Below the pieces are notes generated by a model. The model was not told the DNA's origin. It was given only the letters and a program-made list of their open reading frames with translations, and made no database searches. Of a stretch of DNA of 64,000 bases, positions 46,800-64,000 are shown one piece after another; positions within the stretch are counted from its first letter, which is position 1, and each line of letters opens with the position of its first letter. This stretch comes from Candidatus Collierbacteria bacterium RIFOXYD2_FULL_45_13 (GTDB taxonomy: Bacteria > Patescibacteriota > Microgenomatia > UBA1400 > MFAQ01). The DNA is taken from positions 91,489 through 155,488 of the forward strand of contig MFAS01000001.1 in assembly GCA_001774685.1 (NCBI GenBank). Reading direction: 5' to 3'. A program made the position numbers and the translations under genes.

Positions 46800-46938
46800 C
46801 TTAGCTCAATTATAAACCAAATAAATTACCAACAATCCATCAATGAATTTACTGATATAAAGGTCTCGAACTAGTCGTCTGACAAGTGATGTCATCGAGG
46901 AAGGCCCCTGTCAACACGATTAGACTATACTAAATTAC

Positions 46939-47220
46939 ATGAAGGGTATTATCAGCTTTGCTGTACTCATATTTGTTATATTTTGGATTTGGAATCACGT
47001 TATTTCACCCCCTAAATTCACTGGATTCTACTATCCGAATGCCGGTGAACTAAGTGTCTACAAACAAAGTCCCGAATTAGATTCCTTAGAAGAATGTCGA
47101 GAATGGGTTGAGGATATTAGTGGAGGACGAACAGATCAAAATTTTGATTATGAATGTGGAAAAAACTGTAGGCTGAGTGAGGCTGGTGGTATTTATATTT
47201 GTAATGAAACCTTAGAATAA
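46939..47220 (+). CDS. Small secreted Cys-containing protein, hypothetical
   Basis: N-terminal TM/signal peptide, 4 Cys. Confidence 0.4.
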   Translation: MKGIISFAVLIFVIFWIWNHVISPPKFTGFYYPNAGELSVYKQSPELDSLEECREWVEDISGGRTDQNFDYECGKNCRLSEAGGIYICNETLE

Positions 47221-47362
47221 TTCCTAAACTTCTTAACTCAACCCACATTGCTCACAAAAGGACGATCTTCGAAGTCAAAGCCAAAAGATTGGCGAGTAAA
47301 TTGCCAAAAACAGTTTAAAATACACAAAATACTATTTTGTGGTTAAATACTACTCATAAACT

Positions 47363-47596
47363 ATGATTTCAGTTACTTTCGGCGGTAAAGCAAAAAGATT
47401 AATGTATGAGGCGTTGAATAAGTCGGTTGATGGAGAGGGTTATCTCGTAGAAACTCTTAATCCGAAGCAAAGAGTCTTAACTAAAGATGGTGAGTTTATA
47501 AAACCAAATGAGGTTGGAATTGTTAGACCTGGCTCTCAAATATTTATTAAAAAAGATATTGTCTCATTAATTAAATTCGCTTCGGACTTAATTTAA
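47363..47596 (+). CDS. Hypothetical protein (77 aa)
   Basis: Stop codon abuts the start of the next gene (47597). Confidence 0.4.
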   Translation: MISVTFGGKAKRLMYEALNKSVDGEGYLVETLNPKQRVLTKDGEFIKPNEVGIVRPGSQIFIKKDIVSLIKFASDLI

Positions 47597-48481
47597 ATGG
47601 GTTTTTTAAAAGAACTTGGAGAGTTTTTGATAAAGATTTCAGAGGGCAAGCTTCAGTTCAAGGCAGATGTTCACTTCTTAGAAAATGTTAAAGATATTAA
47701 AGTAGGTGAATCCAACACGACTTATGTTGACAACAGAACTCTAATTATTGGTGACGATGCGTTGTCTAACCCTGAAGCGGTAAAAAAACTTACGCAAATA
47801 TTCCAATCTGCGATAGATCCAAAAAATAAACAAGCGTATTTTTCGGTAAATAATGGGCAGGAAAGGTTGTTGGAAGTGAAAGAGGCCGATATTTGTTCTT
47901 CAAACATAGACTTCTTTAGGGGTAAAATCTCCGACACAGATTTTATTATTCTACAAACGGCATCTGTAGTTAAAAACATGTATATCAAGGGAAACCAGCC
48001 CGAAGCAAATAGAATAAAACATGAGACTGTAGAAAGGTATGGCAAAAGAGCAAACAATATCATTAACTTATACGCTGAAAGTTACTTCGATACCACACTA
48101 AAGCCACTATATGAGATACTTTACGAAACGGGAGATGCTGACTCTGTAGATATCTTCGACAAAATGTATAGAATAATTGTTTCTGAGGAAGTTTTTACTT
48201 TATTTGTCTCAACGACACAGACAGAAGAACAGGTTTACGATAAGCTTAAGGAAAAAATAGAGGTCAACAGGTCTTACGGTGCTTACAAGATAAATATTCA
48301 TGGAATAAACAAGTCAAATGTTGACAAGATTAATAATGTTGTGGTTAAACTTATTGAAGAAAAAGTGGTTGATGGAATGCCAAATATCATTCAAAAAGGA
48401 CATGCCATCATGGCGCAAATTAAACTTAGTAAAAGAGAAGGAGATGTTGATCCATCAGATGATGTAGTTTCTATAATTTGA
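47597..48481 (+). CDS. Hypothetical protein (294 aa)
   Basis: Long ORF. No recognisable motifs. Confidence 0.5.
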   Translation: MGFLKELGEFLIKISEGKLQFKADVHFLENVKDIKVGESNTTYVDNRTLIIGDDALSNPEAVKKLTQIFQSAIDPKNKQAYFSVNNGQERLLEVKEADICSSNIDFFRGKISDTDFIILQTASVVKNMYIKGNQPEANRIKHETVERYGKRANNIINLYAESYFDTTLKPLYEILYETGDADSVDIFDKMYRIIVSEEVFTLFVSTTQTEEQVYDKLKEKIEVNRSYGAYKINIHGINKSNVDKINNVVVKLIEEKVVDGMPNIIQKGHAIMAQIKLSKREGDVDPSDDVVSII

Positions 48482-48538
48482 TTAGAATTTAGACACAAGC
48501 TGTGACATTTGCCATACCAGACTATTCCTTACATACAT

Positions 48539-49189
48539 TTAATTACAAAACCATGATCTCTCACATCTGGTAGTGCAGGTGCCAGTAAAGCTATTGCAGT
48601 TCTCCTTACAGCACATTGGTGCCTCCATGGGCTTAACTGTTGGGATTTGAATTGGCTGTTGGATTCGAACATTTGTAACGGGAGCTGGTTTGTTGCTTTG
48701 TGCGTACTCCTGCTGTTTCAGCTTGCACTCATCTTTATCCAAAGTTATGTTTACATTACCCACCCCGCAACATGTCGAATTAACACAAGCGCTTTGTTTC
48801 ATTCTCTTCGTACCCCCACCACATTTTTCATGCAAAGGGCAATCTATCAGAGGGTCTGATTGATCTATCTTGGTATTGGTTTTGCTAAGGTCAGCACTTG
48901 GGATTGAGTACAAGACAAAAAAGAACAAAACAAAGACACCGCCAGACACTCCTAGCATTTTCCAGTCTTTATTTCTAAGGACAGAGACAAAAAACAGTAA
49001 AAATCCAATTACCCCAACGAGTATGCCTAATAAGAGTAGGAGCATGTTGAAACCACTTCCGTTTAAAAAGTTTCCACTTACCGAAAGAATTGAGATATAA
49101 AAGATAGCAATTCCTGACAACCAAAGATAAAAATATTGTCTACTGTGGTTGACAGCGTGACTATTCCTTGTCGACTTACCTTTTTTCAT
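48539..49189 (-). CDS. Membrane protein with a Cys-rich C-terminal domain, hypothetical
   Basis: Two or more TMs, more than 12 Cys in the C-terminal 90 aa. Confidence 0.45.
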   Translation of the reverse strand: MKKGKSTRNSHAVNHSRQYFYLWLSGIAIFYISILSVSGNFLNGSGFNMLLLLLGILVGVIGFLLFFVSVLRNKDWKMLGVSGGVFVLFFFVLYSIPSADLSKTNTKIDQSDPLIDCPLHEKCGGGTKRMKQSACVNSTCCGVGNVNITLDKDECKLKQQEYAQSNKPAPVTNVRIQQPIQIPTVKPMEAPMCCKENCNSFTGTCTTRCERSWFCN

Positions 49190-49196
49190 CTTACAT

Positions 49197-49400
49197 TCAG
49201 TTTACACCTGTCATTTTAATGAGATCAGTCATTTTATACCTTCTATCACCTCTTATACCAAACCTGATGGCCTTCAAAATCCCTTTCTTATCCCAAAGCC
49301 TCAAGGTATTTGGGTGAACTCTCAATATTTTGCATGCCTCAGATAGGGTCACAATTTCATTTAATTTCTTTTTCATAGCCATAATTTTTACCAAGTACAA
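49197..49400 (-). CDS. Excisionase/MerR-like helix-turn-helix DNA-binding protein (HTH_17-like)
   Basis: IVTLSEACKILRVHPNTLRLWDKKGILKAIRFGIRGDRRY. Confidence 0.6.
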   Translation of the reverse strand: MYLVKIMAMKKKLNEIVTLSEACKILRVHPNTLRLWDKKGILKAIRFGIRGDRRYKMTDLIKMTGVN

Positions 49401-50107
49401 TACTTTCCAGTCAACTCGTTAAACCTGCCTCTTTGAGACGAGATGGTCTGCATTCGATAATAATCGATTGGGTCTGAAGTTTTAATTCCATACTGTAAAA
49501 GCCTTTCGGATCTGTTTTGATCATTATCTCTTCTCCAATCTTGACATTCTTTTATCTCAGCATCTGCTCCTCTACGATGACATTTCGAATCCATCTCTAG
49601 AAATGCAACTTCCTCTTCATATTTCTTAAGATCTGAATACACCTTTGTTAACTGTTCACCTGTACATATGGCGGGAACAATTTCCCCCTTTATTTCTCGT
49701 GGAACAGCTATTTGCTGGGTTGGACTAGTAATAGAAAACTTTGGAACAGGAAATTTTTGGAACTTAGAAAGAAAATACTTATCATATTCACGAATCATAT
49801 CTGGCGAGTTCATAATTCTATCAATACTCGCCTTTTCAGTTAATCCAAAAAAATTTCTCAGGACATCTTCAGTAATTGAAGTCGTTGGGTGAAGAATTTT
49901 TGTCGGTGTCACTGATGGTTTTCTGGTTGGATAGTTTGTCGGTTTATTTACAACTGGTGAATCAGGCGCAACCAATGTTACGGTTGGCATTACAATCTCT
50001 GTCGATTCCGTAGCTACTGGTGTGTATTTCTCTATTTGTTTGGGTTGATGACTAAATAAGCTTGAAATAGACACAAACATTGCAACAAAAAAGTTTCTCA
50101 TAACCAT
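49388..50107 (-). CDS. Secreted hypothetical protein
   Basis: Signal peptide MVMRNFFVAMFVSISSLFS. 13-nt overlap with the HTH gene. Confidence 0.5.
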   Translation of the reverse strand: MVMRNFFVAMFVSISSLFSHQPKQIEKYTPVATESTEIVMPTVTLVAPDSPVVNKPTNYPTRKPSVTPTKILHPTTSITEDVLRNFFGLTEKASIDRIMNSPDMIREYDKYFLSKFQKFPVPKFSITSPTQQIAVPREIKGEIVPAICTGEQLTKVYSDLKKYEEEVAFLEMDSKCHRRGADAEIKECQDWRRDNDQNRSERLLQYGIKTSDPIDYYRMQTISSQRGRFNELTGKYCTW

Positions 50108-50152
50108 ATCTTACTTGATATTACCTCACAATAAAATACAATATACCTCATC

Positions 50153-50956
50153 ATGAATATAAAGATTATTGAACCAACTTTTATGGCAAGAGAGATCAGA
50201 AAAGTTACTTCATACGAAAAGATTTTTTTAAACATACTTGAAGATGATGCTTACTTTGAGACTAAAGTATTATCTGCAAGAAAAATGCTTGGTATACCTG
50301 AAAACGGATTTGATATTCAGATAAATGTTCTATCCAAAGATTTCCTTAGTGATGTCCTAATGTCTGAAAGAGGGAAGCCACTTATGGAACTGTTAAAACA
50401 CACTGGTCTAAGTCGGCAAAAACACGAGAGACTACTTAGAAAACTGACCCAAGAAATTTGCAACGAGTATCAAATGCACCTTGGTCGATGGGAATTCCCA
50501 ATATCGCTACTAATCATATACAACAAGTTAATTATGTATACAGGAACAAATTTACCTAAAGTTAATCTTGTAAGTGGTTCTGAGGTGTCAGGAAAAACTC
50601 CTTATAGATATCAAATACCTGACAGTTTTGTCTATTTGGAAATAGAAGATATTCTCACAAAAACAGAGTTAATAAGAAGCGTAAAAAAACTTTGGCCCAA
50701 AATAAACAAAATGTTAAAAAAATACAGAAGTCCAATCACATCTGTTCCAAGAATAAAGATTCAAGATCCTACGCTTGAAATCTATAGATTTATATTCCAA
50801 CAAAGACAAAATGAAGACGCTACTTTTACTCAAATTGCTGACAAAATATCCGACAAGTACAACAAACAGTTTTCCGATAACCAAGCCAACATTTATTTCA
50901 CAAGATATCTTGAAACCATAAATAGCCTCAGAAAATCTACCACATCTCAGACATAA
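50153..50956 (+). CDS. Hypothetical protein (267 aa)
   Basis: Long ORF in an AT-rich block. Confidence 0.5.
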   Translation: MNIKIIEPTFMAREIRKVTSYEKIFLNILEDDAYFETKVLSARKMLGIPENGFDIQINVLSKDFLSDVLMSERGKPLMELLKHTGLSRQKHERLLRKLTQEICNEYQMHLGRWEFPISLLIIYNKLIMYTGTNLPKVNLVSGSEVSGKTPYRYQIPDSFVYLEIEDILTKTELIRSVKKLWPKINKMLKKYRSPITSVPRIKIQDPTLEIYRFIFQQRQNEDATFTQIADKISDKYNKQFSDNQANIYFTRYLETINSLRKSTTSQT

Positions 50957-51411
50957 CAACTGTTATGTTTATCTTTTGATGTATTAAGTTCATCCATAAA
51001 AAGTTAGATTTGCTTGTTATTAAAACAGGCAAATATGAATATAAACAATTTCTTTGTTTCAGCAGATCTTCCCTTAGTCACCACCATCTCCCTTTATTAC
51101 CCAATAGACGCCCTCGACAGATCTAGCCCTCCAAGAGTTCAATTTCTTTTTAAGAGGGATGGCGATCTCGATAAGCTGGTTGAGGCTTTCTGGAAAGACG
51201 AACTCAGAGTCAGTCCTCAAATCTTTTTCAACCAACTGAAAATTATTAAGTCTAGGATTCACAACAACTAGTATGTTGAGTCCAGCGTTGATCTCCGAAC
51301 TCCAACAGATTCTTATCTCCGACTTTGGAATCAATGCTGATTTAAAAGAAACTACCAATATCGGCAATTCTCTGGCTAAGTATTTCGAAATATTAATAAA
51401 CATAAACAAAA

Positions 51412-51612
51412 ATGAAAAACCTCAAGTCCCAACCAAAAAACGCAATTATTAAACTCCACAGAGTGCTGGAACAGGCTATCAAAGCCAAGTGCTACGACTG
51501 CCAGTGTGGGCAAAAGAAACTAGACTGCGAAATCATAGCCTGTCCACTTTACTTACTAAGACCATGGGCAAACAAGAAGTATAGGAAAAATAAACAAATT
51601 TCCCAAGGCTAA
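51412..51612 (+). CDS. Small Cys-rich (zinc-binding-like) protein, hypothetical
   Basis: CYDCQCG...C..IACP. Confidence 0.4.
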   Translation: MKNLKSQPKNAIIKLHRVLEQAIKAKCYDCQCGQKKLDCEIIACPLYLLRPWANKKYRKNKQISQG

Positions 51613-51643
51613 ATAATAAATAATTTGATTCCTAGTAATAAAT

Positions 51644-51997
51644 ATGAATATAGACATACAAGACATCAAAGTAAAAATCAAAATCCTCAAAGGAGCCGGG
51701 AAAACACTTGCTCAAGCCTCCATAACACTGTTTGACTGCTGGACGGAACATGGATGGCGAATAATGACCTCTGAACACCTCGATCCCATCCTTCAAGAAT
51801 ATATATGGATTCAATCCCCTTGTTTTAAAGCTGGCTTCTCTTGGAAAGAAATGGTCTTTATCGAACCCAAAGAACAATATGAAAAAGTTTACGAAAAAAT
51901 CTACGACGCATATAGAATCGCCAAATACAAGGAACCACAGGAAGATGAAGCAGAAAAAATATTCACCGACTCAAAAACGAATGAACCACCTTTCTAG
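51644..51997 (+). CDS. Hypothetical protein (117 aa)
   Basis: ORF with an acidic C-terminus. Confidence 0.45.
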   Translation: MNIDIQDIKVKIKILKGAGKTLAQASITLFDCWTEHGWRIMTSEHLDPILQEYIWIQSPCFKAGFSWKEMVFIEPKEQYEKVYEKIYDAYRIAKYKEPQEDEAEKIFTDSKTNEPPF

Positions 51998-52002
51998 ACA
52001 CA

Positions 52003-52085
52003 TAGTAACTAATAGAGTTACTTATATAGTTACTCTATATAGTAACTATATTGTTTCTCTAAATAGAGTATCTATAAAAGTTACT
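52003..52085. promoter_or_regulatory. Iteron-like cluster: 5 copies of AGTAAC/GTTACT in alternating orientation (candidate operator, origin or recombination site)
   Basis: catAGTAACtaatagaGTTACTtatataGTTACTctatatAGTAACtat ... aaaaGTTACTgt seen directly. Lies 45-125 nt upstream of the 52130 gene. Confidence 0.55.
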
Positions 52086-52129
52086 GTACCCGAAAGTATT
52101 AGAATCTCTAATTATTTCGGATAAACAAA

Positions 52130-52744
52130 ATGGGTAGATATTCGTATTCAAGCAAGTCAGAAGCCGACTCACTAAAAAGCGTCAGTGTCTATTGGCTAAA
52201 TAAATATAAATATCTAGAACCTGGCTATACAAAATCGGGTGGAATTGTATGGACTAGGTCAAATGGATCGAAAAACGACATCAGAATTTGTGTTTCCATC
52301 CCCGATCTTTATGTTCAATTCAAATATATTCAAACAGATCGTGAAACCGGAGAGAAAAAAGACTTTGACTACAAGATTCCACTCATCACGTCAGTATGCC
52401 ACTTTGGTGGAATAAGATATTGGTTCAAATGCAGTATGTATAAAAGCGGAAAGTTCTGTGGTCGGAGAGTAGCTACTGTTTACAAAGATGGAGACTACTT
52501 TGCTTGTAGGCATTGTTACGATCTCACATATTCGAGCAAAAAAGAAAATTATAAGGGTTTCTTTGGAATGTTGACAAAATTAATCTATGAAGAAAAAAGA
52601 ATGGAAGCAATTAGAGACTCTCTCAAGAGAAAGACCTACGCTGGCAGACCAACCAAAAAAGTTCGAAGGTTCCTCCGACTCGCTAGTCATCATCCGGAAA
52701 AGGTTCATGAGCTAATCGACCAAAATATATATCGAGCTCGTTGA
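52130..52744 (+). CDS. Zinc-finger protein, hypothetical (Cys4: CHFGG..C / C..CRHC)
   Basis: Basic C-terminus. Preceded by the iteron cluster and followed by the serine recombinase. Confidence 0.5.
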   Translation: MGRYSYSSKSEADSLKSVSVYWLNKYKYLEPGYTKSGGIVWTRSNGSKNDIRICVSIPDLYVQFKYIQTDRETGEKKDFDYKIPLITSVCHFGGIRYWFKCSMYKSGKFCGRRVATVYKDGDYFACRHCYDLTYSSKKENYKGFFGMLTKLIYEEKRMEAIRDSLKRKTYAGRPTKKVRRFLRLASHHPEKVHELIDQNIYRAR

Positions 52745-52793
52745 TTTAACAATACTTGATAATAGATACCAAATAAACTAAACTAAAATAAAT

Positions 52794-54017
52794 ATGAAAA
52801 GTGTTGTTCTGTGTAGAGTTTCCAGCAAAGAGCAAGAAGAAACCGGATATTCTTTGGGGGCACAGGAAAAGTTCCTGAACTCTTATAGAGAGAAACAAGG
52901 ATACCAACTCACAAAGCTCTTCTCTATCTCCGAATCAGCCAGTGGTAAAAAACAAAGAGAGCTTTTTGATCAAATGATTTCATTCGTCAAGAAGAACGAA
53001 ATAAAGGTCATAATCTGCGAGAAAGTCGATCGTCTCACCAGGAATTTTAAAGACATGGTCATGATCGATGAGTGGTTGGAAGAAGATGAAAGCAGGCAAG
53101 TCCACCTAGTCAAAGACTCTCTAATAATTCATAAAAACTCTCGATCTCAAGAAAAACTCAATTGGGGTATTCGAATCCTGTTCGCCAAAAATTATGTCGA
53201 CAACCTATCGGAAGAAGTCAAAAAAGGGCAAAAAGAAAAGATTTCTCAAGGCTGGCTACCAACAAAACCACCGTATGGATATAAAACCATTGGAGAGAGC
53301 GGACACAAAGAACACATCATTGATGACCGAATTGCTCCGCACATAAAAAGAATGTTTGACCTGTACTCTACCGGGATCTATTCCATCAAACGAATAGTCG
53401 AGGTTATATATCAAGAGGGACTAAGATCACATAAAGGAAATAAACTCACAAAGAGTCGAGTTGGTGAACTCCTATCCGATCCGTTTTATATCGGGAAAAA
53501 TGTATGGAATGGTTCTGAATATATCGGAAAACAAGAACATCTGATTTCAGAAGAAACATTTGCGAAGGTACAACAAGTTTTAAAAGGAAAAACAAACCCA
53601 AAATACAGCAAGCACGATTTCCTTTTCAAGGGTCTGATTAAATGTCAGGAGTGTCATGGTACTATCACATGGGAAACTCAAAAAGGAATCATCTATGGCC
53701 ACTGTAATCACTATCGAAACTGTTCTCAAAAAACCTGGTCAAAAGAAAAGGATACAGAAGAAACGGTTCTTAAGGGTCTGGAAAGTTTGAAACTGTATAG
53801 TCCTAAGCTCACAGAATGGATAAGAAAAGCGTTAAAAGAAAGTCACCAGTCAGAGATTGAATACCACGAATCAACGCAAACAGAACTAAAACAAAAATAC
53901 GACCAAGTACAGAATAGATTAGACCGACTCTTCGATGAAAAGATTGATGGAAATATCGAGGATGCGTTCTATAAAAGAAGTTCACTCAGTATTCCGAGGA
54001 AAAAGAAGCCATCCTAA
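52794..54017 (+). CDS. Large serine recombinase / integrase (resolvase catalytic domain + recombinase domain + zinc ribbon)
   Basis: Catalytic-Ser region VLCRVSSKEQEETGYSLGAQ, VDRLTRN, ribbon CQECHG..C..C, coiled-coil tail. Confidence 0.85.
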   Translation: MKSVVLCRVSSKEQEETGYSLGAQEKFLNSYREKQGYQLTKLFSISESASGKKQRELFDQMISFVKKNEIKVIICEKVDRLTRNFKDMVMIDEWLEEDESRQVHLVKDSLIIHKNSRSQEKLNWGIRILFAKNYVDNLSEEVKKGQKEKISQGWLPTKPPYGYKTIGESGHKEHIIDDRIAPHIKRMFDLYSTGIYSIKRIVEVIYQEGLRSHKGNKLTKSRVGELLSDPFYIGKNVWNGSEYIGKQEHLISEETFAKVQQVLKGKTNPKYSKHDFLFKGLIKCQECHGTITWETQKGIIYGHCNHYRNCSQKTWSKEKDTEETVLKGLESLKLYSPKLTEWIRKALKESHQSEIEYHESTQTELKQKYDQVQNRLDRLFDEKIDGNIEDAFYKRSSLSIPRKKKPS

Positions 54018-54352
54018 GTAGCATTAGACGACATTCAGAGTCCTCCACGAACTATCTTCAGAAATGTCTAGCTGTCTATGATATTTCACAAAATGCCACC
54101 GGGTCATACTCAAACGGAACTGTAGAACAAAAACACGAGTTAATAAATCTAGTCTTTAAGTCCCTGACTCTAAATAATGGGGTGCTTGGATACTCCTACA
54201 ATGATCATTTTGACCTGCTACACAAAGCTGTTCAAGCCACCAATAGTTCGAAAGTCGAAAAAACAGTCTCAGAAGACTCTATTATTTTCGAACTAGGTAA
54301 AAAGACGGATAAATCGAACATTAAAGGCCGGATATTACCCACCCGACCTGTT

Positions 54353-54650
54353 TGGCTCCCCCGCGTGGACTCGAACCACGGACATCCTCCTTACAAGTGC
54401 CCTCAACTTTCGAAGAGGCTTGGACTATCTCATCACCGCTGAGCGGTGTCAGGCGTATAGTCTCTGAACCTTCCGATCAACAAACACAGGGGTTTACCCT
54501 GAGCCTGCCGAAGGGCTTGGCTGCGGATTACCATGGCCTTTCGGTCAACAGGCTTCCCGACAGTTAACCCGATTTTCCACCCAAAATTGCTTTCAGGCGC
54601 TGCAAGTTATGTATTACAGGGAGGCGCTCTACCAACTGAGCTACAGGGGA
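54353..54650 (-). tRNA. tRNA-Asn(GUU) interrupted by a group I intron. Exon 1 is 54616..54650, exon 2 is 54353..54393 with CCA encoded
   Basis: Spliced sequence UCCCCUGUAGCUCAGUUGGUAGAGCGCCUCCCUGU|UAAGGAGGAUGUCCGUGGUUCGAGUCCACGCGGGGGAGCCA. Nearly identical in architecture to E. coli tRNA-Asn (anticodon loop CUGUUAA, variable loop AUGUC, T-loop UUCGAGU, discriminator G). 5' exon ends in U and the intron ends in G. Confidence 0.7.
54394..54615 (-). other. Group I intron (222 nt) inserted between anticodon positions 35 and 36
   Basis: Core elements on the RNA strand: Q AAUCCGCAGC (54520-54529), R GUUCAGAGACUA (54458-54469), S GAGAUAGUCC (54422-54431). A candidate internal guide GCAG pairs with the exon end CUGU. 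The ORF-track ORFs 54182..54442 and 54352..54567 overlap it and are spurious. Confidence 0.65.
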
Positions 54651-54680
54651 ATATAAACGAACCTAGTTATTTTACCAACC

Positions 54681-54992
54681 TCACGCCTTTCCCGCAAGGC
54701 TAATATAGCCAGAATGGACCTCTCTGTGGCAATTTGCACACAACAAAACACATTTTAGGACTTCTTCTTTTGTTTTCTCCCACGATCTAGTCAAGCCTCT
54801 ATCTGACAAACCAAACTCTTTGGTCGACCCCTCTATGTGATGGAAATCGAGCGCTTTTATCGCTCTACAATACCCACAAACCACACATTTTCCACCCAAT
54901 AAGTCCACAGCCATTTGTCTTAATTTCTTTCTACGTTTTTTGACAGATCTAATATTACTTTCCCTTACATCAGCATATTTTCTGGTCTCCAT
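54681..54992 (-). CDS. Free-standing HNH endonuclease
   Basis: CVVCGY...DFHHIEG...CANCH (HNH beta-beta-alpha-metal motif). 31 nt upstream of the intron-containing tRNA. Confidence 0.75.
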   Translation of the reverse strand: METRKYADVRESNIRSVKKRRKKLRQMAVDLLGGKCVVCGYCRAIKALDFHHIEGSTKEFGLSDRGLTRSWEKTKEEVLKCVLLCANCHREVHSGYISLAGKA

Positions 54993-55062
54993 CCATATTC
55001 AATTTACCATAAAAAAACCGAAGCTTCAGAGCCAAATTTGGAAACTTAACTATATCCGAATA

Positions 55063-55389
55063 TCAAACCAACTTCCCTAAAACGACGTTCAACAAAGCGA
55101 GCACTACTGCCGCTATAAGTGCCGCTCCGAACCCGTCCACCTTAAACCCGGTTACAAAATTACTCATCAACATTATTAAAAAGGCGTTTATGACAAAGGT
55201 AAATAGCCCCAAGGTCAGGATGTTTACGGGCAAGGTTAACAGAATCAAGATTGGTCTCAAAACAATAGACAGTACCCCCCACACAATAGCCACCACCGCC
55301 AGAGCTTGAAAGTTGGCAATACGCACCCCAGGAACAATATAAGCAGTCACATAAAAAGCCAATGCGTTGACGATTAAGTTAATTAACAT
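55063..55389 (-). CDS. Phage-holin-4_2 family (PF04020-like) four-TM membrane protein
   Basis: MLINLIVNALAFYVTAYIVPGV...VDGFGAALIAAVVLALLN. Confidence 0.55.
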   Translation of the reverse strand: MLINLIVNALAFYVTAYIVPGVRIANFQALAVVAIVWGVLSIVLRPILILLTLPVNILTLGLFTFVINAFLIMLMSNFVTGFKVDGFGAALIAAVVLALLNVVLGKLV

Positions 55390-55454
55390 ACATCATCATA
55401 TTCACATTTCTTACCTCTTGTCAAATTAGTTACTTCAGTCATAATGGTCTCGGT

Positions 55455-56063
55455 ATGACCGAAAATCTAAAGGGTATTTCAGGGTCCATGTTCGCGGGAA
55501 AGACAGAGCTACTTCTCAAAGAAATATCCAGAACCGAAATGGCTGGATACAAAGTCCACGTTTTCAAACCATCAATTGATACTCGTTGGGGTCTTTACGA
55601 AATCCATTCTCATTCCGGCGGGAGTCATGCGGCTACACCCATAAACCATCCTTATGAAATAATTGAACAACTTGAAACCGATGCTGATTTAGTCGCCATC
55701 GATGAAATTCAGTTTTTCGAACCGGAAATTATTGATGTCGTAAGGTTTCTACTGGATCAGGATATCCGCGTCATATTCGCCGGACTCGCTCTAGATTTTC
55801 GAGGAGAATCATTTGGGTCCATGCCGGACCTTCTTGCACTTTGTGACGAAATAGAAAGACCCTCAGCTATCTGCCAATACCCAATACCGGAAAAGAAAAC
55901 TGGTAAATGCGGTGCAGGAGCCACGCGCACACAGCGCATCGTAAACGGCCAACCGGCTAATTATAATGACCCTATTGTTTTGATCGGAGCCTCACAAGAA
56001 TATGAGGCTCGTTGTCCAAATCACCACGAAGTTCCCGGGAAACCTAAACCAAAAATTAAATAG
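55455..56063 (+). CDS. tdk: Thymidine kinase
   Basis: P-loop GSMFAGKTELL, Zn ribbon C..C ... C..H at the C-terminus. Confidence 0.85.
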   Translation: MTENLKGISGSMFAGKTELLLKEISRTEMAGYKVHVFKPSIDTRWGLYEIHSHSGGSHAATPINHPYEIIEQLETDADLVAIDEIQFFEPEIIDVVRFLLDQDIRVIFAGLALDFRGESFGSMPDLLALCDEIERPSAICQYPIPEKKTGKCGAGATRTQRIVNGQPANYNDPIVLIGASQEYEARCPNHHEVPGKPKPKIK

Positions 56064-57167
56064 TTACTCCAAATAATCCTGTAATTTCCGTCTTCGAGAA
56101 GGATGGCGAAGTTTCCTTAGTGCCTTACTCTCTATCTGTCTAATTCTTTCTCGGGTCACTCCAAAAACTTTTCCCACTTCTTCCAGGGTCAGCGGTTTAC
56201 TTCCATCCAACCCAAATCTCATGCGGAGCACTTTACTTTCTCGTTCGGTTAACGAACCCAAAGCTTCTTCAAGATTTTCATGCATTAGTTGTCTGGAAGT
56301 AGCTTCGTATGGGGTCGCCTGTCTTTCATCTGGGATAAAGTCTCCGAGAAGCGAGTCTTCGTCGTCACCGATTGGGGTTTCGAGCGAGGTCGTCTTTTGG
56401 GCAATTTTCAAAATCTCTCTGACTTTCTCGGGAGTGGTCTCCAGCTCTTCAGCCACTTCTTCGTCGGTAGGTTCACGACCCAGATCCTGCATTAATTTTC
56501 TTTGTGTCCGGATTAGTTTGTTTATTGTCTCCACCATGTGTACCGGAATGCGGATGGTTCTGGCTTGGTCTGCTATCGCCCTGGTAATGGCCTGACGGAT
56601 CCACCAGGTTGCATAAGTTGAGAACTTGAATCCCTTGGTCCAGTCATACTTTTCTACCGCCCTGATCAAGCCTTTGTTTCCTTCTTGTATTAGGTCCAAA
56701 AAGCTCATGCCTCTCCCCATATACTTCTTGGCAATTGAAACCACTAACCTCAAATTGGACTTTGTTAGCATGTCTTTAGCCCTCTTATCTCCTCTTTCCA
56801 CTTTCTGAGCCAGAGCAATCTCTTCATCACGTTTCAGAAGTGGGATTCTTCCGATTTCCTTGAGGTACATGCGCACAGGATCGTTGACTTCTGTCTCTTC
56901 TAGCTTCGACAGAGATTCCAGCTCCTTCTCTAGGTCACTTGAGGCGGCGGCAATCTCCGCATCTTGTCCGGCCAAAACACTCTCAAACACGTCAATATCT
57001 GCCTTAAAAAGCAGCTCATAAAGATAATCAAGATCGTTTACTTGGGTCTCCGGTTGGGGAAAATACTCCAATATGTCATCCTGGGTCACAAACCCCTGCT
57101 CCTTCCCCAAGGCCAAAATGTCTCGAATTTTCAACTGAATGGATGAATCGCTCTTTTTATCGGCCAT
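56064..57167 (-). CDS. rpoD: RNA polymerase sigma-70 factor RpoD
   Basis: Region 2 [31 protein letters not shown], region 4 [29 protein letters not shown]. Confidence 0.9.
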
Positions 57168-57204
57168 AATATTCTCTCCTATTTTAACACAGTGGATCTC
57201 AAAA

Positions 57205-58971
57205 TTACCCCAAAAGGACCATTATCTTGTTCTCTTCCCTATCCAAAGTGCTCAGCTCCCCCGAAAGGGCTTCTTCCGTTTGTTCATCTCCTGCTTCCTT
57301 GGCCTTTTTCATCTCCACAATTAACCTCTTACGACTTTCACGAATGGTTTCCCTTATGAGCTGCACCGCTAGTTCCAAGACATCCTTTTCCTCAGTTTCG
57401 CCCTCTCCTTCGGCCATATAGGCATCCTCGATAAAGCTCTTAAGCTCTGAAGGTGCTAGCTCAGCTATTTTAGCCGGACCCACCTCTTCACTCGCCAGTA
57501 CCCAAAGCAAAGCTTTTCCGGCCGCCCCAGACAATTTTGTGTTCTTCAACCATTGCTCAACTTTCTTCTTTGCCGCCGGACAAATGAGCAGTCCACCTAC
57601 CAATCTTCGAGCCAATTTGTCCATTTTATTTTCCATTAAGGACACCTCCTCGGTGGCCTTACTTGGGTATTTTTCAGCCCAGTTTTTCCCGGACTTAATC
57701 CTCTCCATTTCCGCCTTGACCACCGAAGCTTCTACCCCCAGCTTTTCTGCCAGCTTCTTCGTCCAAACCTCCCTCATCACGGAATTTTCAATTTTTACAA
57801 AAAATGGCATCACCTCTTCTGTTATCTTTTTGATACCTGACATTGTTTTGATATCGTTTTTTTCTAAAGATCTTGTCATTACAAACTCATAAACATCTAC
57901 AGCCCCTTCCACCATCTCTCTCCATTTGTTCGGGTAATTCCTCGCAATTTCATCAGGATCTTTACCGCCATCTATCTGTACTACTTTAATCTCCAACCCC
58001 CTTTTCTCCGCCAGCTCTGCCGATCTTTTTATAGCCGCGATTCCCGCCTCATCAGCGTCCAAGGAAAGATAAATTGTAGAAGTTAGCCTTGCTAATAACT
58101 CTATCTGTTCATCGGTTAGTGCCGTACCCCCTACAGCCACCGTTTCGGTAACCCCCGCCCCAAAGGAACTAATCATATCCATTTGACCTTCAACCAATAC
58201 TGCTCTTTTTATCTCTCTAATGGCTTGTCGTGCTTGATAAAAACCATAAAGAATCCGGCCTTTATGATAAATCTCGGTTTCCGGTGAGTTCAAGTATTTT
58301 GGTTCACCTTCTTTTGCCAGATCGGGTAAGATTCTCCCTGTAAAGCCCACCACCTTACCCCCCGAATCCTGAAGCGGAAACATTACTCGTCCTCTAAATT
58401 TATCGAAAAACCCGCCCCCACTTCTCCTGCTGATTAATCCCGCCTTTTCCAACACTACCTCTGAGTACCCCTTTTTCTTTGTAAGGTATTCCATCAGATT
58501 ATCCCATCCCTGCAGGGAGAAACCCAGATTAAAAGTCTCGATTAATTTATCGTTGATTTTTCTCTCATTCAAATACTTTCTGGCTTCTACTCCGGCTTTG
58601 CTCTCAGTCAGTAGCCAATGATAATATCTAGCCGTCAGCTCCATCACCTCCAGTAGTTTTTGCTTGTCACTTCCAAATTCGGATTTTCTCGTCACCAATT
58701 TTACTCCTACTTTTTCAGCCAATCTCTCCAGCGCCTCTCGAAAATCAACTCCCTCTATCTCCATCAAAAACTTAATCACGTCTCCACCGGCACCGCAACC
58801 AAAGCATTTATAGAGACCCATCTCCTCGTTGACCATGAAAGATGGAGTCTTTTCGCTATGAAAAGGACAGAGGCCTTTATGATGCCTCCCCATCTTTTTT
58901 AATGCCACATACTGCCCAATGAGTCCTACAATATCCGTCTTTCTCTTAACTTCTTCAACTTGATCTTCCAT
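57205..58971 (-). CDS. dnaG: DNA primase DnaG
   Basis: Zn ribbon [11 protein letters not shown]...[28 protein letters not shown]. Confidence 0.9.
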
Positions 58972-59026
58972 CTTTGGGTTTTATTAGTATCAATCCACTT
59001 TAGATTGTACCAAAAACCCTTTTCAT

Positions 59027-59404
59027 TTAGGCAGGCATATATTTCTTAACAATCGTCGGGATGTCTTTTATGTCGATGTTAGCCTTGACAATATAATCCT
59101 TGGCTCCCAAACGCATCCCCTCGTCAATACTGGTCTCCTGTTCGAAGTTTGTCAGGATCACGACCGAAATGTTCTTAGTGTCTGGATTCCCTCTAATTAT
59201 TTTCAAAACCTCAAACCCGCTCTTTATGGGTAGCAACAAGTCCAGGAGGATTAGGTCTGGTTTTTCCTTTAGGATCATTTTTTCGGCCTCCTCTCCGTCG
59301 GTGGCTACTGAGATATCGTACCCTTCATCTTCCAGAGAAAGAGTCAGGGCGTTTACTAACACCGCATCATCCTCGACGATCATCACTTTCTTTTTGTTAT
59401 CCAT
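59027..59404 (-). CDS. Stand-alone response-regulator receiver (CheY-like) domain protein
   Basis: KKVMIVEDD (phospho-acceptor region), ...LILLDLLLP..., conserved K in KANIDIKD. Start set at the internal ATG 59404 (MDNKKKVMIVEDD), which gives an 8-nt overlap with the histidine kinase stop. Confidence 0.75.
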   Translation of the reverse strand: MDNKKKVMIVEDDAVLVNALTLSLEDEGYDISVATDGEEAEKMILKEKPDLILLDLLLPIKSGFEVLKIIRGNPDTKNISVVILTNFEQETSIDEGMRLGAKDYIVKANIDIKDIPTIVKKYMPA

Positions 59405-61964
59405 TCTTATTTTGTTTAATTGGTAATTTAACAAAAAACGTTGTTCCTGTGCCCTCTTTCGACTCAAACCAGATATTTCCACCATGGCTAGTGATAATGT
59501 TCTTGCTCATATACAGACCCAGGCCGGTTCCCGGAACTTTCTTGGCTACGTTGTCCGCTCTAAAGAATCTTTCAAACACCCTGGGTTTCTGAGACTCTGG
59601 AATACCTAAACCCTCGTCCTTAATCATCACTTGGTATCCGTCATTCATCTTTTCAGCCCATACCGTCACTCGGGACCCATCCGGTGAGTATCGGGCAGCA
59701 TTGCTCAATATATTGCCAAACACTTGTATCATTTGGGTTGCATCCACCTCCACCACAAACCCTTCCGGAATCAAGTCAATTCCTTCAAGACGAATGTTGT
59801 GGTCAACATACATTCGCGCCTGAATTTGGCTAGCTCCCTTGATAATTTCTTTCAACGAACGGTTTTCCAGCTGTTTTTCGACAAAACCACTCTCGTTCAT
59901 TTTCCCCACCGCCAAAAGGTCGTCAACCAAATCAATCAGCTTTTGATTACTCTCCTCAATGCTATCGATATATTCCTTTGCCTTCTTGTCAGAAGATTTA
60001 ACGGCGCACTCTCGAAGAAGTCCCACATACCATTTTATTCCTGTCAGCGGCGAACGTAACTGATGGCTGGCAAGCGAAACAAAATCCAACCTCATTTTTT
60101 CTAATTCGCGCTGCTTGGTCACATCACGCAGCACCCACACTGTTCCGACCAATTTATGTTTCTCATCCATTATCGGCGAAGCGACTCCATCAATCGAAAT
60201 CCTAACTCCACCTTTTCTGTTTAATATTAATGTCTCAATCGATCTTGCTTGTTTTTTCTTATTAAATACCGTTTCCAACAGATCTTCAGGTTTTTTACCG
60301 GAAGATTCATAAGACAAGTCCATCACCTCCTCGATGTTTTTTCCGGTCATCTCTTTTCTTCCAAGTCCGAACAGCTTTTCCATTGCATTATTTGCCATGA
60401 CAATGGTCTTTTTTGTGTCTGTTACAAAAACGGCATCCCCGATATCACTTAAAATATTCTCCAGTTTTTGTTTTTGGGTGAGAGTGTCAAAGCTCAACTT
60501 ATCCAATTTTTCCTGATATCTCTTCCTCTCGGTAATATCTTGAATCGTTCCCACCATCCTGATTGGCTTACCTTTGAAGTCAAAGTCCAGCTTGCCAATC
60601 CCATGAACCCACGCCATTTTTCCATTTGTTCTATTTACTATTCTGTATTCCTTATCAAATGCTTTATTCTTATCCAGCACCTCCTTCAGAAAATAGTCCC
60701 GCATCAATCCTCTGTCATCCGGATGGACGATCTCCAGCCATCCCTCGGTGTTCGTCTTGTAGTGGTTGTCAATACCAAATAGCTCATTCAGTACTTCCGA
60801 ACCTTCCCAATCATCATTTTTAATATCCATCACATAATATCCCAGCCTAGCCACCCTCTGAACCTTTCGCAGCAGACGTACCAACGTCTCCAACCTCCCA
60901 AACGACTTAGATGTCCACAAATACAACAATCCGGCGGTAACCGATACAAAAATCCAGCCTTTTATGGTTGAAATCTCCATAAACAGTTTCCTGTCGGCGA
61001 CTAAAAGATCAACTAGCCTGTCGGAAAAAAGTATCCAGACCCCACCCAACAGTAGATACCAAAGAGCCGGTTTTGCGGACTCGGCCGCTCCACCCCATCT
61101 GACATTTAATGTGTAATACTCTCCCCATCTTACCCATAATGCATTTACCACCACCAGTACTATGATCATGAGGAAAATCATTGTCATATTAAACATTCTC
61201 ACTGAATTCAAAACCGATGACTCCCAACCCGGTACCGGAACGGCACCCAATTCCCAATATTCGTTGTCAAACCGAATTGTAGAGATTACCGGATTGTTCT
61301 TAAACATATCTTTGTCTCCCCAAAAAACAATCCCATTTTTGTCCCTCAAAGACAGCCTCAATCCATCGATCCCTTTCTCTAAACCTGATGACCTTATAAT
61401 GTCTGGAACGTCTACCACTACTGAAACCAACCCCCACAGTTGATTATTTCTAAAAATTGCTTTTCTCGCTGCTATGCCCAAACCCCCTTGAAGCAGCGTA
61501 AATGGTTCAGTCACTACAGTTTCTTTTGACTCAATCATTCGGGCAATCTCCGACTTTACGCTTGGTCTCTGATCTGCCAGTAGGTTATAGCCCAAAGCCC
61601 CTTCATTTCCTTTTATCGGATATATTAAAGAAAGAATTCCTCCCCGCGCTATTCCAACATTTCGGACACCTTCATTGTCGTTATAGAGACCTGGGGCAAA
61701 TATCGGAAAATCGTCAATGACGCTCTTCTCATCCCTGCTTGTTACAAATTTTTCCAATCCTCGAACCAAACCCAAACGACGGGTAAGAATCATTTCGACA
61801 CCATTTTTGTATATCCCTAGAGTGGCCTCTACCTTATTCCTACTGTCCGTCACCAACCACTTCTCATACCTTTCTGATACGTAAACTCCACTCAACACAA
61901 ACAACATTATCAATACAGATAACATTGTATTCTTAGCCGAAAACCACTTTCTTACCAAGTTCAT
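59397..61964 (-). CDS. Sensor histidine kinase (periplasmic sensor domain, TM, PAS/PAC repeats, HisKA, HATPase_c)
   Basis: H-box SLASHQLRSPLTGI, N/G boxes NILSNAARYS, GTGLGLYMSKNI, GTGTTFFVKLP. Confidence 0.85.
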   Translation of the reverse strand: MNLVRKWFSAKNTMLSVLIMLFVLSGVYVSERYEKWLVTDSRNKVEATLGIYKNGVEMILTRRLGLVRGLEKFVTSRDEKSVIDDFPIFAPGLYNDNEGVRNVGIARGGILSLIYPIKGNEGALGYNLLADQRPSVKSEIARMIESKETVVTEPFTLLQGGLGIAARKAIFRNNQLWGLVSVVVDVPDIIRSSGLEKGIDGLRLSLRDKNGIVFWGDKDMFKNNPVISTIRFDNEYWELGAVPVPGWESSVLNSVRMFNMTMIFLMIIVLVVVNALWVRWGEYYTLNVRWGGAAESAKPALWYLLLGGVWILFSDRLVDLLVADRKLFMEISTIKGWIFVSVTAGLLYLWTSKSFGRLETLVRLLRKVQRVARLGYYVMDIKNDDWEGSEVLNELFGIDNHYKTNTEGWLEIVHPDDRGLMRDYFLKEVLDKNKAFDKEYRIVNRTNGKMAWVHGIGKLDFDFKGKPIRMVGTIQDITERKRYQEKLDKLSFDTLTQKQKLENILSDIGDAVFVTDTKKTIVMANNAMEKLFGLGRKEMTGKNIEEVMDLSYESSGKKPEDLLETVFNKKKQARSIETLILNRKGGVRISIDGVASPIMDEKHKLVGTVWVLRDVTKQRELEKMRLDFVSLASHQLRSPLTGIKWYVGLLRECAVKSSDKKAKEYIDSIEESNQKLIDLVDDLLAVGKMNESGFVEKQLENRSLKEIIKGASQIQARMYVDHNIRLEGIDLIPEGFVVEVDATQMIQVFGNILSNAARYSPDGSRVTVWAEKMNDGYQVMIKDEGLGIPESQKPRVFERFFRADNVAKKVPGTGLGLYMSKNIITSHGGNIWFESKEGTGTTFFVKLPIKQNKNG

Positions 61965-62043
61965 TCATCTTCATCTTATCGATATACCTTTTCGGCGTCA
62001 ATGGTTATGTGAGATAAATTACTTTTACGGGCTTGTTCTTCTT

Positions 62044-62130
62044 TGGCGGAGGCGGTGGGATTCGAACCCACGGGGCCTTGTTAGGCCGCGGGTTAGCAAC
62101 CCGCTCGAATAACCACTATCGGACGCCTCC
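62044..62130 (-). tRNA. tRNA-Ser(GCU), class II (long variable arm), CCA encoded
   Basis: GGAGGCG-UC-CGA-UAGUGGUUAU-UCG-A-GCGGG-UUGCUAA-CCCGC-(16-nt variable arm)-GUGGG-UUCGAAU-CCCAC-CGCCUCC-G-CCA. Confidence 0.85.
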
Positions 62131-62275
62131 AAGTGAGCAACGGGAAAAACATCGTTTTCCTTAGTTGCGAGCGCGGAGATGCCGGATAACTACCGTTATC
62201 GGACGCCTCCAGCAAACCCTATTTTAACAGCTATTCCCGGTTTCCTAGCCTCACGAATGATAAAATAGACTTCTC

Positions 62276-62357
62276 GGAGAGCGGGCAGGACGGTAATGCG
62301 TCAGTCTTGAAAACTGATGAGCGCAAGCTCTAACAGGTTCGACCCCTGTGCTCTCCG
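62276..62357 (+). tRNA. tRNA-Ser(UGA), class II
   Basis: Acceptor GGAGAGC/GCUCUCC. Anticodon arm UCAGU-CUUGAAA-ACUGA. T-arm ACAGG-UUCGACC-CCUGU. Discriminator G. Confidence 0.8.
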
Positions 62358-62362
62358 CTCTT

Positions 62363-62447
62363 GGAGGGGTCACATAGTGGTCTAGTGTAGAGGTTTACTA
62401 AACCTCCGTGTCGCAAGGCACCATGGGTTCGAATCCCATCCCCTCCG
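62363..62447 (+). tRNA. Class II Ser-type tRNA with an apparent ACU anticodon (atypical)
   Basis: Acceptor GGAGGGG/CCCCUCC. Anticodon arm GAGGU-UUACUAA-ACCUC. 16-nt variable arm. T-arm AUGGG-UUCGAAU-CCCAU. A paralog of the GCU tRNA, with A rather than G at position 34. Confidence 0.6.
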
Positions 62448-62465
62448 CCTGTGTTAATATGAAAT

Positions 62466-62966
62466 GTGGCTGAAATAGAGAATAAAGACTTAAGTGAAAA
62501 GATACTGTTGGAGTTTGAGGCGTATGACCGACCACATAAAGTTTGGAGTAAAGAATTTTATAGTTCAGTGATAGTAATTGCCTTTTTGGTATCGATTATT
62601 TTCTATTTTATAGAGGGATTCATGCCTGTACTCGTCATTTGGGCGCTTGTGTTTATGTTGTGGGCGATGGCCAAGACAGAACCTCGATTGATAAAAACCG
62701 AGCTGACTTCTTGGGGTCTGAAATCTCAAGAGAAGACATACCGCTTTGAAGAAATGGCATCTTTTTGGTTTGAAACCAAGTGGGGAACCAGACTCATGAG
62801 AATAAACTTGGCGGTCGTGCCCTGGCATCTGGTAGTCGTTCTCGACCCCAATAAGGAAGATGATCTAAAAAAACATATGCTGGAAAGGGTAATATTCCAA
62901 GAGCCCGCAGTGACTTGGGTGGATAGAGCTTTGAAATGGGTAGGAGAAAAGATGCCCTTAGAATGA
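62466..62966 (+). CDS. Hypothetical membrane protein (166 aa) embedded in the tRNA cluster
   Basis: Two TM helices (VIVIAFLVSIIFYFI, VLVIWALVFMLWAMA). Confidence 0.5.
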   Translation: MAEIENKDLSEKILLEFEAYDRPHKVWSKEFYSSVIVIAFLVSIIFYFIEGFMPVLVIWALVFMLWAMAKTEPRLIKTELTSWGLKSQEKTYRFEEMASFWFETKWGTRLMRINLAVVPWHLVVVLDPNKEDDLKKHMLERVIFQEPAVTWVDRALKWVGEKMPLE

Positions 62967-63011
62967 GGGAAAATGCCCCGTAGATGGTAAAATAAGAGCT
63001 TGTTCGCATAT

Positions 63012-63085
63012 GCGTTCGTAGCTCAGTTGGATAGAGCACCAGATTGCGGATCTGGGGGTCGGAGGTTCGAGTCCTCCCGAGCGCA
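63012..63085 (+). tRNA. tRNA-Arg(GCG) as read (an unusual isoacceptor; most bacteria use ACG)
   Basis: GCGUUCG-UA-GCUC-AGUUGGAUA-GAGC-A-CCAGA-UUGCGGA-UCUGG-GGGUC-GGAGG-UUCGAGU-CCUCC-CGAGCGC-A. Confidence 0.7.
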
Positions 63086-63091
63086 CTTATG

Positions 63092-63176
63092 GGAGGATGG
63101 GCAGGACGGTAATGCGTTGGTTTCGAAAACCAATGAGCGTAAGCTCTAACAGGTTCGACCCCTGTATCCTCCGCCA
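63092..63176 (+). tRNA. tRNA-Ser(CGA), class II, CCA encoded
   Basis: Acceptor GGAGGAU/AUCCUCC. Anticodon arm UUGGU-UUCGAAA-ACCAA. Same backbone as the Ser(UGA) copy. Confidence 0.8.
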
Positions 63177-63178
63177 AC

Positions 63179-63508
63179 ATGAAACAAATAAAGGACAAGC
63201 CAACACTAAGAGATCTCCAAAACTATATAAGAGATGTGGGGGTGGAGAGAGGTTTCGAGGATACGACAATCCCGGAACTGTTTATGTATTTGTCGGAAGA
63301 AGTTGGGGAGCTGGCAAAGGCGGCCAGACAATTAACAAAAATGCATACAGATTCCAATTCGGACAAAATGGAGATTGATCGCGAATTGGCGGACGTATTT
63401 AGTTATGTTGTGGATATTGCCAATCTCCTCGGAGTTGACATGGAAGAGGCATTTAAGGAAAAAGAAGAGATTAATAACAAAAGAGTTTGGAATAAAAAGG
63501 GTGCGTGA
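63179..63508 (+). CDS. MazG-like nucleoside triphosphate pyrophosphohydrolase (all-alpha NTP-PPase)
   Basis: EEVGELAKA (EExxE metal motif), ELADVFSYVVDIANLLGVD. Confidence 0.7.
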   Translation: MKQIKDKPTLRDLQNYIRDVGVERGFEDTTIPELFMYLSEEVGELAKAARQLTKMHTDSNSDKMEIDRELADVFSYVVDIANLLGVDMEEAFKEKEEINNKRVWNKKGA

Positions 63509-63523
63509 GATAATACGAAGTAT

Positions 63524-63600
63524 GTACCCGTAGCTCAACTGGATAGAGTACTTCCCTCCGAAGGAAGTGGTTGTGCGTTCGAATCGCACCGGGTACACCA
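63524..63600 (+). tRNA. tRNA-Arg(CCG), CCA encoded
   Basis: GUACCCG-UA-GCUC-AACUGGAUA-GAGU-A-CUUCC-CUCCGAA-GGAAG-UGGUU-GUGCG-UUCGAAU-CGCAC-CGGGUAC-A-CCA. Confidence 0.85.
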
Positions 63601-63657
63601 GTAAAAAAACTCAAAAACTTGAGAACTCAAAAAGAAAGACTTGAGGTAGAATAGGGC

Positions 63658-64000
63658 ATGATTGAACTGGACAGAGATCCAATCTTTGGTGAAGTTAAGG
63701 AAAAGCTGAACATGTTGGGGATTGAAGGGGTCTTGTTCGATTTGGATGATACCCTCATTTATACGAGCGAAATATTTATCAGGTTTATGAAAATGTATGC
63801 GGTTGAAGTCGCTGGAAAGATAGGAGTTAAGGAGGCCGAACTGATAGACGCATTGCAAGAAATCAATGACGAAGAGTACAAGTCCATGGGGGTGAACCCT
63901 AAAAGGTGGGCGGCGGTGGTAGAAAAACTAGCAAAACACTTTGGTCATGGAGAAAAGGAGATTCTAGACAATCTAGATATTTTGATGAACATATACATGG
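63658..64000 (+). CDS. HAD-superfamily hydrolase. Partial: the C-terminus is beyond the window end
   Basis: MIELDRDPIFGEVKEKLNMLGIEGVLFDLDDTLIYT (HAD motif I DxDxT). Absent from the ORF track because no stop codon falls inside the window. Confidence 0.6.
   Translation, partial: MIELDRDPIFGEVKEKLNMLGIEGVLFDLDDTLIYTSEIFIRFMKMYAVEVAGKIGVKEAELIDALQEINDEEYKSMGVNPKRWAAVVEKLAKHFGHGEKEILDNLDILMNIYM

Follow-up and report, generated by a model that had tools for sequence, protein, structure and literature searches.

A conserved tRNA-Ser(ACU) gene in a Candidatus Collierbacteria tRNA cluster, probably an auxiliary reader of AGU

[quoted passage not shown] ANN anticodons in split codon boxes, the Ser-Arg box included, are listed in reviews as universally missing, and A and G are described as mutually exclusive at position 34 within the tRNAs of one amino acid (PMC8007984). 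[quoted passage not shown] Near the right end of the window, by which we mean the whole stretch of 64,000 nt that was analysed, a gene for a tRNA-Ser(ACU) stands beside one for tRNA-Ser(GCU), and the coexistence of the two breaks the exclusion rule for position 34. The original prediction regarded A34 outside tRNA-Arg(ACG) as highly unusual in bacteria, a judgement that the reviews bear out (PMC8007984).

The gene (tRNA positions 1–73) occupies 62363..62447 on the forward strand and is supported by ARAGORN, Rfam, folding and covariation. The ARAGORN call (62363..62449, +) extends past the Rfam end at 62447, and the CCA is incompletely encoded. The anticodon ACT (A34, C35, U36) lies at 62397..62399 (+), with A34 at 62397, inside the loop TTACTAA at 62395..62401. 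As RNA this loop is UUACUAA, against UUGCUAA in tRNA-Ser(GCU); both loops were read in the sequence just as first described. The Rfam tRNA model scores the gene at 51.7 bits (E 3e-8, gathering score 29), equal to tRNA-Ser(GCU) and above the ∼45 bits of tRNA-Ser(UGA) and tRNA-Ser(CGA). The predicted fold is a cloverleaf that includes a long extra arm (5 bp, GCAA loop), at −36.5 kcal/mol and with z = −4.0 against shuffles. The canonical tertiary nucleotides are in place (T8, A14, the GG of G18G19 and the T-loop GGTTCGAATCC), and the T-stem is G-C rich. Thus, the assignment as a Ser-type class II tRNA with an ACU anticodon holds, and the covariance-model check that had been proposed for it gave no pseudogene signature: neither a broken structure, nor a low score, nor a lack of conservation was found. 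It had also been considered that relatives might carry G34, as the tRNA-Ser(GCU) isoacceptor does, and here the window and 19 of 19 syntenic orthologs have A34. All the sequence criteria that were applied place the gene in the tRNA-Ser family.

Six tRNA genes were called by ARAGORN at the right end of the window. The canonical AGY decoder, tRNA-Ser(GCU), lies on the reverse strand at 62047..62130 (ARAGORN 62044..62130), ∼230 nt from tRNA-Ser(ACU). The others are on the forward strand and were called by both ARAGORN and Rfam: tRNA-Ser(UGA) (62276..62358), tRNA-Ser(ACU) itself, tRNA-Arg(GCG) (63012..63085; ARAGORN 63012..63086), tRNA-Ser(CGA) (63092..63173; ARAGORN 63092..63176) and tRNA-Arg(CCG) (63524..63597; ARAGORN 63524..63600). 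The gap of 4 nt between the end of the UGA gene at 62358 and tRNA-Ser(ACU) agrees with the placement directly 3′ of tRNA-Ser(UGA) that had been given. The two genes are probably co-transcribed, and their adjacency is kept in most related loci. Between tRNA-Ser(ACU) and tRNA-Arg(GCG) sits an ORF for a conserved 166-aa membrane protein of unassigned function (62466..62966, +; 113 homologs), which has a 100% identical counterpart in Candidatus Collierbacteria bacterium RIFOXYB2_FULL_46_14 (CPR, Microgenomates). A histidine kinase, this membrane protein and a MazG-like protein make up the conserved neighbourhood of the gene; other genes of the window, DnaG, RpoD, SufB and PBP1A, are ordinary bacterial ones.

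The original prediction saw in tRNA-Arg(GCG) a choice just as unusual. In CPR, Thermotogae and Spirochaetes, however, this tRNA has been reported as the norm (PMC8629427, PMC8007984), and it was present in 30 of the 32 sequences scanned here (the window and 31 related loci); its occurrence in CPR is already known rather than new. Also within the cluster is a 20-nt copy of the 5′ end of tRNA-Ser(GCU) (62192..62211, −; direct repeat, 90%), a remnant and not a gene, which lies 80 nt upstream of tRNA-Ser(GCU) on the strand of that gene. It is carried by an insert of ∼80 nt that is absent from relatives, and is likely to be a recombination or duplication scar.

To place the gene among its relatives, the 166-aa ORF was used as a synteny anchor; its homologs were aligned to give 31 loci from GTDB species representatives, and ARAGORN was run on each. 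An intact tRNA-Ser(ACU) was found in 19 of the 31, in the same Ser/Arg tRNA cluster and usually right after tRNA-Ser(UGA), and tRNA-Ser(GCU) also lay within the fetched stretch in 18 of these 19. The loop YTACTAA does not vary among the 20 copies found by synteny (the window and the 19 loci): position 32 is U, or C in L031, and U33-A34-C35-U36-A37-A38 is invariant. When the 16 distinct ortholog sequences were aligned and scored against the cloverleaf, standard pairs filled 97.9% of stem cells. Compensatory changes on both sides were seen in 12 of the 24 pairs, a count reached by none of 500 shuffles and compared with 1–4 in slid controls. All orthologs have the extra arm, which itself shows compensatory changes. 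The serine identity elements G1-C72, G2-C71, A3-U70 and G73 are invariant in all 16, and pair 11-24 is C-G in 12 of the 13 sequences scored. The intact structure, the covariation and the invariant anticodon together indicate selection on both structure and anticodon, and on the strength of these alignments we conclude that the window gene is kept by selection.

A covariance model made from the same alignment was used to find remnants. In L003 (3908..3976) the 5′ half alone is left, including the ACU loop, and in L007 (3880..3957) the 3′ two-thirds alone, beside an insertion of ∼550 nt. Both loci belong to Collierbacteria species nested among ACU-bearing ones, and the remnants indicate that some lineages can do without tRNA-Ser(ACU), as one would expect of an auxiliary isoacceptor.

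The proposed paralogy with tRNA-Ser(GCU) was borne out by an inverted repeat that relates the 3′ 61 nt of both genes at 77% identity; over their full length they are ∼74% identical. More generally, ACU genes of the window's type are nearest to GCU genes (74–76%), and compare at ∼50–65% with UGA, CGA and GGA genes. L024, an outgroup locus that lacks an ACU gene, has a GCU gene in the slot directly 3′ of tRNA-Ser(UGA), and the D-arm and anticodon-arm sequence of that gene is common to the window-type ACU genes. The simplest history suggested by these comparisons would be that tRNA-Ser(GCU) was duplicated and that the copy in the ancestral slot then changed from G34 to A. At least three ACU sequence types were seen: a second type occurs in L008, L013 and L030 (and as the L007 remnant) and another in L031. 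These non-window types are 61–69% identical to anything else, a level which makes independent origins or replacements likely.

Codon reassignment or ambiguity had been put forward as one meaning of an ACU anticodon on a serine tRNA. We examined the code by aligning orthologous ORFs across the window and the 31 GTDB loci. Where one sequence has AGA or AGG, the others mostly have Lys or CGN-encoded Arg, with Ser outside the six commonest residues; AGU and AGC occupy columns of G, N, S, T and A. When RpoD was aligned with Bacillus subtilis SigA, Arg stood opposite 7 of 11 AGA and 3 of 5 AGG codons of the conserved region. As read from these alignments the AGN code is standard: AGA/AGG mean Arg and AGU/AGC mean Ser. 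A reassignment of AGA/AGG to Ser is rejected on this evidence, and the suggestion of an altered code was not upheld. Arg is encoded most often by AGA, at 18 per 1000.

ACU-bearing genomes do not favour AGU: their AGU/(AGU+AGC) is 0.62, compared with a mean of 0.65 for the other two-codon Y boxes. The AGU fraction is similar in ACU-less relatives, so that no codon-usage benefit is visible in this comparison. A separate peculiarity concerns the GCU partner. In L011–L014, L016, L017 and L030, the tRNA-Ser(GCU) beside tRNA-Ser(ACU) has C33 in place of the near-universal U33 (loop UCGCUAA), and the same was seen in 12 metagenome loci (for example L032, L038 and L087). C33 is present in 19 of 68 GCU genes of ACU-bearing loci and in 0 of 9 from ACU-less loci; it may reflect relaxed constraint on the GCU tRNA or a division of labour between GCU and ACU.

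The distribution of tRNA-Ser(ACU) is wider than the window, and takes in the Collierbacteria clade, at least one Yanofskybacteria contig and viral contigs. A metagenome scan, in which the pattern GGAGNNGT, the loop YTACTAA and the T-loop were all required, gave at least 120 matches. All 120 of the matches listed were called as tRNA-Ser(ACU), and among them were 98 distinct sequences and 27 clusters, the largest of which (47 sequences) is the window's type. Genes of that type lie in Ser/Arg clusters of CPR style, some of them beside homologs of the 166-aa ORF with identities down to 28–30%. Another ACU type was found in L033, which IF-2 assigns to Candidatus Yanofskybacteria (Parcubacteria) and in which tRNA-Arg(UCU) adjoins tRNA-Ser(ACU), in keeping with a standard code.

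Other metagenome matches lie in phage-like tRNA arrays, such as a recurrent marine Asn(GUU)-Ser(ACU)-Gly(UCC)-Thr(UGU) array. In IMG/VR, 30 viral contigs match the ACU pattern, compared with at least 120 matches for its G34 (GCU) version. The phage arrays with tRNA-Ser(ACU) are otherwise dominated by U34 tRNAs (UGU, UCC, UGG, UUG, UAG), which read A- and G-ending codons, and this fits a role for tRNA-Ser(ACU) in supplying a reader of AGU. A BLAST search of GenBank phages with the ACU tRNA of the marine phage type returned GCU relatives alone, at ≤84% identity, and no cultured phage carrier. Two further calls in such contigs are recorded here. ARAGORN reported tRNA-Gly(ACC), which is also listed as universally missing, in L061 (∼4144) and L110 (∼5753), both of them phage-like arrays bearing tRNA-Ser(ACU), and tRNA-Ile(UAU) was called in L080, L139 and L155.

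What, then, might this tRNA do? The reading that we favour, and regard as reasonably probable from the sequences and by analogy with other ACU tRNAs, is that of a serine-charged tRNA whose A34 is not deaminated, which reads AGU by Watson–Crick pairing and supplements a wobbling tRNA-Ser(GCU). Duplication of tRNA-Ser(GCU) and the G34-to-A34 change would have given a functional tRNA-Ser(ACU), then retained by selection in Collierbacteria and many other CPR. SerRS, which pays no heed to the anticodon, would charge it; A34 would most likely escape deamination and match AGU in full; and tRNA-Ser(GCU) would stay as the reader of AGC, and of AGU by G-U wobble. The tRNA would on this proposal be an auxiliary AGU specialist and not a sign of recoding. 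We infer, in the same vein, that the gene is expressed and that its product is serylated, keeps an unmodified A34 and decodes AGU only.

Such a tRNA may be tolerated because CPR reportedly lack the tRNA-Arg(ACG)/inosine system and because its UACU loop is without the G36 of the TadA motif; with neither in place, we propose, AGA (Arg) would not be misread. CPR appear to have no tRNA-Arg(ACG) and to use GCG, UCG and CCG anticodons (PMC8629427), and the presence of tadA correlates with that of tRNA-Arg(ACG) (PMC8007984). In E. coli, an orthogonal tRNA with the ACU anticodon gave 9.4% at AGU and 0.36% at AGG, with AGC and AGA below detection (PMC11066159), and in cell-free translation a tRNA-Pyl(ACU) read AGU better than its GCU variant (PMC6158751). 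These experiments with artificial ACU tRNAs support the mechanism proposed for tRNA-Ser(ACU) and make it plausible. According to a passage in PMC11066159, unmodified A34 can weakly read non-U codons elsewhere, as in the tRNA-Thr of Mycoplasma.

It is conceivable, though in our view unlikely, that A34 carries some other and possibly novel modification which tunes decoding. Wobble bases are very often modified, and the modification enzymes of CPR are poorly charted. Against this, the histidine kinase, membrane protein and MazG-like protein of the conserved neighbourhood include no candidate enzyme, and plain A34 already explains the reading of AGU (PMC11066159, PMC6158751).

We think it quite unlikely that A34 is converted to inosine by a TadA-like enzyme. 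An ICU anticodon would read AGU, AGC and, weakly, AGA, and so would replace or duplicate tRNA-Ser(GCU) at the price of some Ser/Arg ambiguity at AGA. Conversion to I34 is the usual fate of A34 in bacteria and eukaryotes (PMC8007984). CPR, on the other hand, are reported to be without tRNA-Arg(ACG) (PMC8629427). The loop UACUAA of tRNA-Ser(ACU) differs from the TadA target UACGAA at position 36 alone. The mRNA and tRNA targets of TadA share a UACG motif with G36; tRNA-Ser(ACU) has U36 in place of the G36 of U33-A34-C35-G36. In the codon box of a TadA-dependent I34 tRNA such as tRNA-Arg(ACG) the U-, C- and A-ending codons are synonymous, and here AGA is Arg and AGU/AGC are Ser. As AGA would be read by ICU and is so frequent and so clearly an Arg codon, such a change would be costly and inosine at position 34 is improbable. 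The odd C33, seen in 19 of the 68 GCU genes nearby, might be a sign that constraint on GCU is relaxed. The GCU gene is kept beside the ACU gene in most loci long enough to judge. In E. coli, which contains TadA, the ACU tRNA did not read AGC (PMC11066159), which implies no inosine on it and lends indirect support to a need for G36. A phmmer search with E. coli TadA as query, run on ORFs in all six frames of 1.3 Mb of genome fragments, gave 0 matches, which for such fragments says nothing either way about tadA. Some phage-like or unclassified ACU contigs do also carry tRNA-Arg(ACG), and their hosts therefore probably have TadA.

A use off the ribosome, as a serine donor in cell-wall or natural-product synthesis, or an existence as a selfish or phage-derived element, seems very unlikely to us. 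Similar genes do lie in phage tRNA arrays, the tRNA leaves no signature in codon usage, and the presence of two ACU types at one locus in close relatives (that of the window and that of L008, L013, L030 and the L007 remnant) suggests replacement. The anticodon loop, however, is invariant while the rest of the tRNA diverges, as would be expected if decoding matters, since SerRS ignores the anticodon. Known non-proteinogenic tRNAs have lost the G18G19 or T-loop consensus and have weakened EF-Tu contacts; these losses are not seen here, where G18G19, the T-loop and the G-C rich T-stem are canonical. The chromosomal position is moreover syntenic across species. That the gene is a duplicate drifting neutrally or in decay, or an artefact of assembly or sequencing, has a negligible probability: although the gene is lost or truncated in L003 and L007, the suggestions of a sequencing error, a recent point variant or a decaying paralog are refuted for the window copy, which is intact in structure and score, by 19 intact syntenic loci among 31 species, at least 120 metagenome contigs, compensatory stems and an invariant anticodon.

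The favoured reading, an AGU reader with unmodified A34, can be set against known systems. Bacterial tRNA-Ser(GCU) has the same class II body, serine identity elements, U36-A37-A38 and cluster, at ∼74–77% identity, and differs in that its G34 reads both AGC and AGU. tRNA-Arg(ACG) likewise has a genomically encoded A34 in a loop of the form U33-A34-C35-N36-A37-A38. It serves a four-codon box, however, with G36 and deamination to an I34 that reads U, C and A synonymously, whereas tRNA-Ser(ACU) has U36, belongs to a split box in which AGA/AGG are Arg, and occurs in a host group reportedly without tRNA-Arg(ACG).

In the tRNA-Thr(AGU) of Mycoplasma and the tRNA-Arg(ACG) of yeast mitochondria, A34 is probably left as adenosine, also in small genomes, according to a passage in PMC11066159; there these tRNAs serve family boxes in minimal tRNA sets and read several codons. 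tRNA-Ser(ACU), in contrast, is an extra isoacceptor in a split box with a G34 partner, so it is not the sole or main decoder of a family box that superwobble implies. [quoted passage not shown]

The engineered orthogonal ACU tRNAs share the anticodon, and are AGU-specific and more efficient than GCU (PMC11066159, PMC6158751). They are artificial, one of the papers terming ACU ‘non-native’, and tRNA-Ser(ACU) is the natural version. A predicted human gene, tRNA-Ser-ACT-1-1 (GtRNAdb), also pairs a serine tRNA with the ACT anticodon; it is a single gene outside the high-confidence set (PMC6779403), with no conservation evidence. It was the sole mention of Ser-ACT in our literature search, which turned up no account of a tRNA-Ser(ACU) occurring naturally in bacteria or phages.

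We consider it an evenly balanced proposition that an A34 tRNA is in routine use for the split Ser/Arg box among CPR (Microgenomates and Parcubacteria) and in a variety of phages; in a stronger version of this reading, GCU (in some lineages with C33) and ACU would have split AGC and AGU between them. If it is true, the avoidance of A34 in split boxes would be a consequence of A34 deaminases, ribosomal decoding itself not forbidding A34, and tRNA-Ser(ACU) would offer a natural system for an unmodified (or newly modified) wobble adenosine. As a conserved, covarying and widespread counter-example to the rule that split-box ANN anticodons are universally missing, the gene is a natural test case for decoding by wobble adenosine, for the freeing of A34 anticodons by loss of the inosine system, and for why phages carry such tRNAs. 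It also bears on annotation, because Ser(ACT) calls are apt to be written off by pipelines and readers alike as mistakes or pseudogenes.

Several observations on the loci and the window stand apart from tRNA-Ser(ACU). L001, L004, L005, L013, L015, L019–L024 and L026–L031 carry the GTDB/ENA labels ‘uncultured Pseudomonadales’, ‘Gammaproteobacteria’ or ‘Spirochaetia’; on contigs that are clearly CPR-like, these labels are placeholder or wrong taxonomy. Within the window, a tRNA-Asn(GUU) at 54353..54650 (−) has its anticodon loop interrupted by a group I intron of ∼220 nt. It was called by ARAGORN with introns allowed and is missed by a default tRNA scan, and Rfam Intron_gpI scores 72.8 bits at 54401..54705. 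tRNA-Asn is not known as one of the tRNA genes that classically host group I introns in bacteria (Leu-UAA, fMet, Arg-CCU and Ile-CAU). An HNH-like ORF (54681..54992, −) lies just upstream.

Beside this tRNA-Asn ends a low-GC island (∼44000..54100; 35–40% compared with ∼44%) of mostly small ORFs, its last gene being a large serine recombinase (52794..54017, +). The island is probably an integrated mobile element or prophage. Finally, the GC skew of the window (1..64000) is strongly negative throughout (−0.06 to −0.34), whatever the gene orientation, and this uniformity indicates a marked strand compositional bias.
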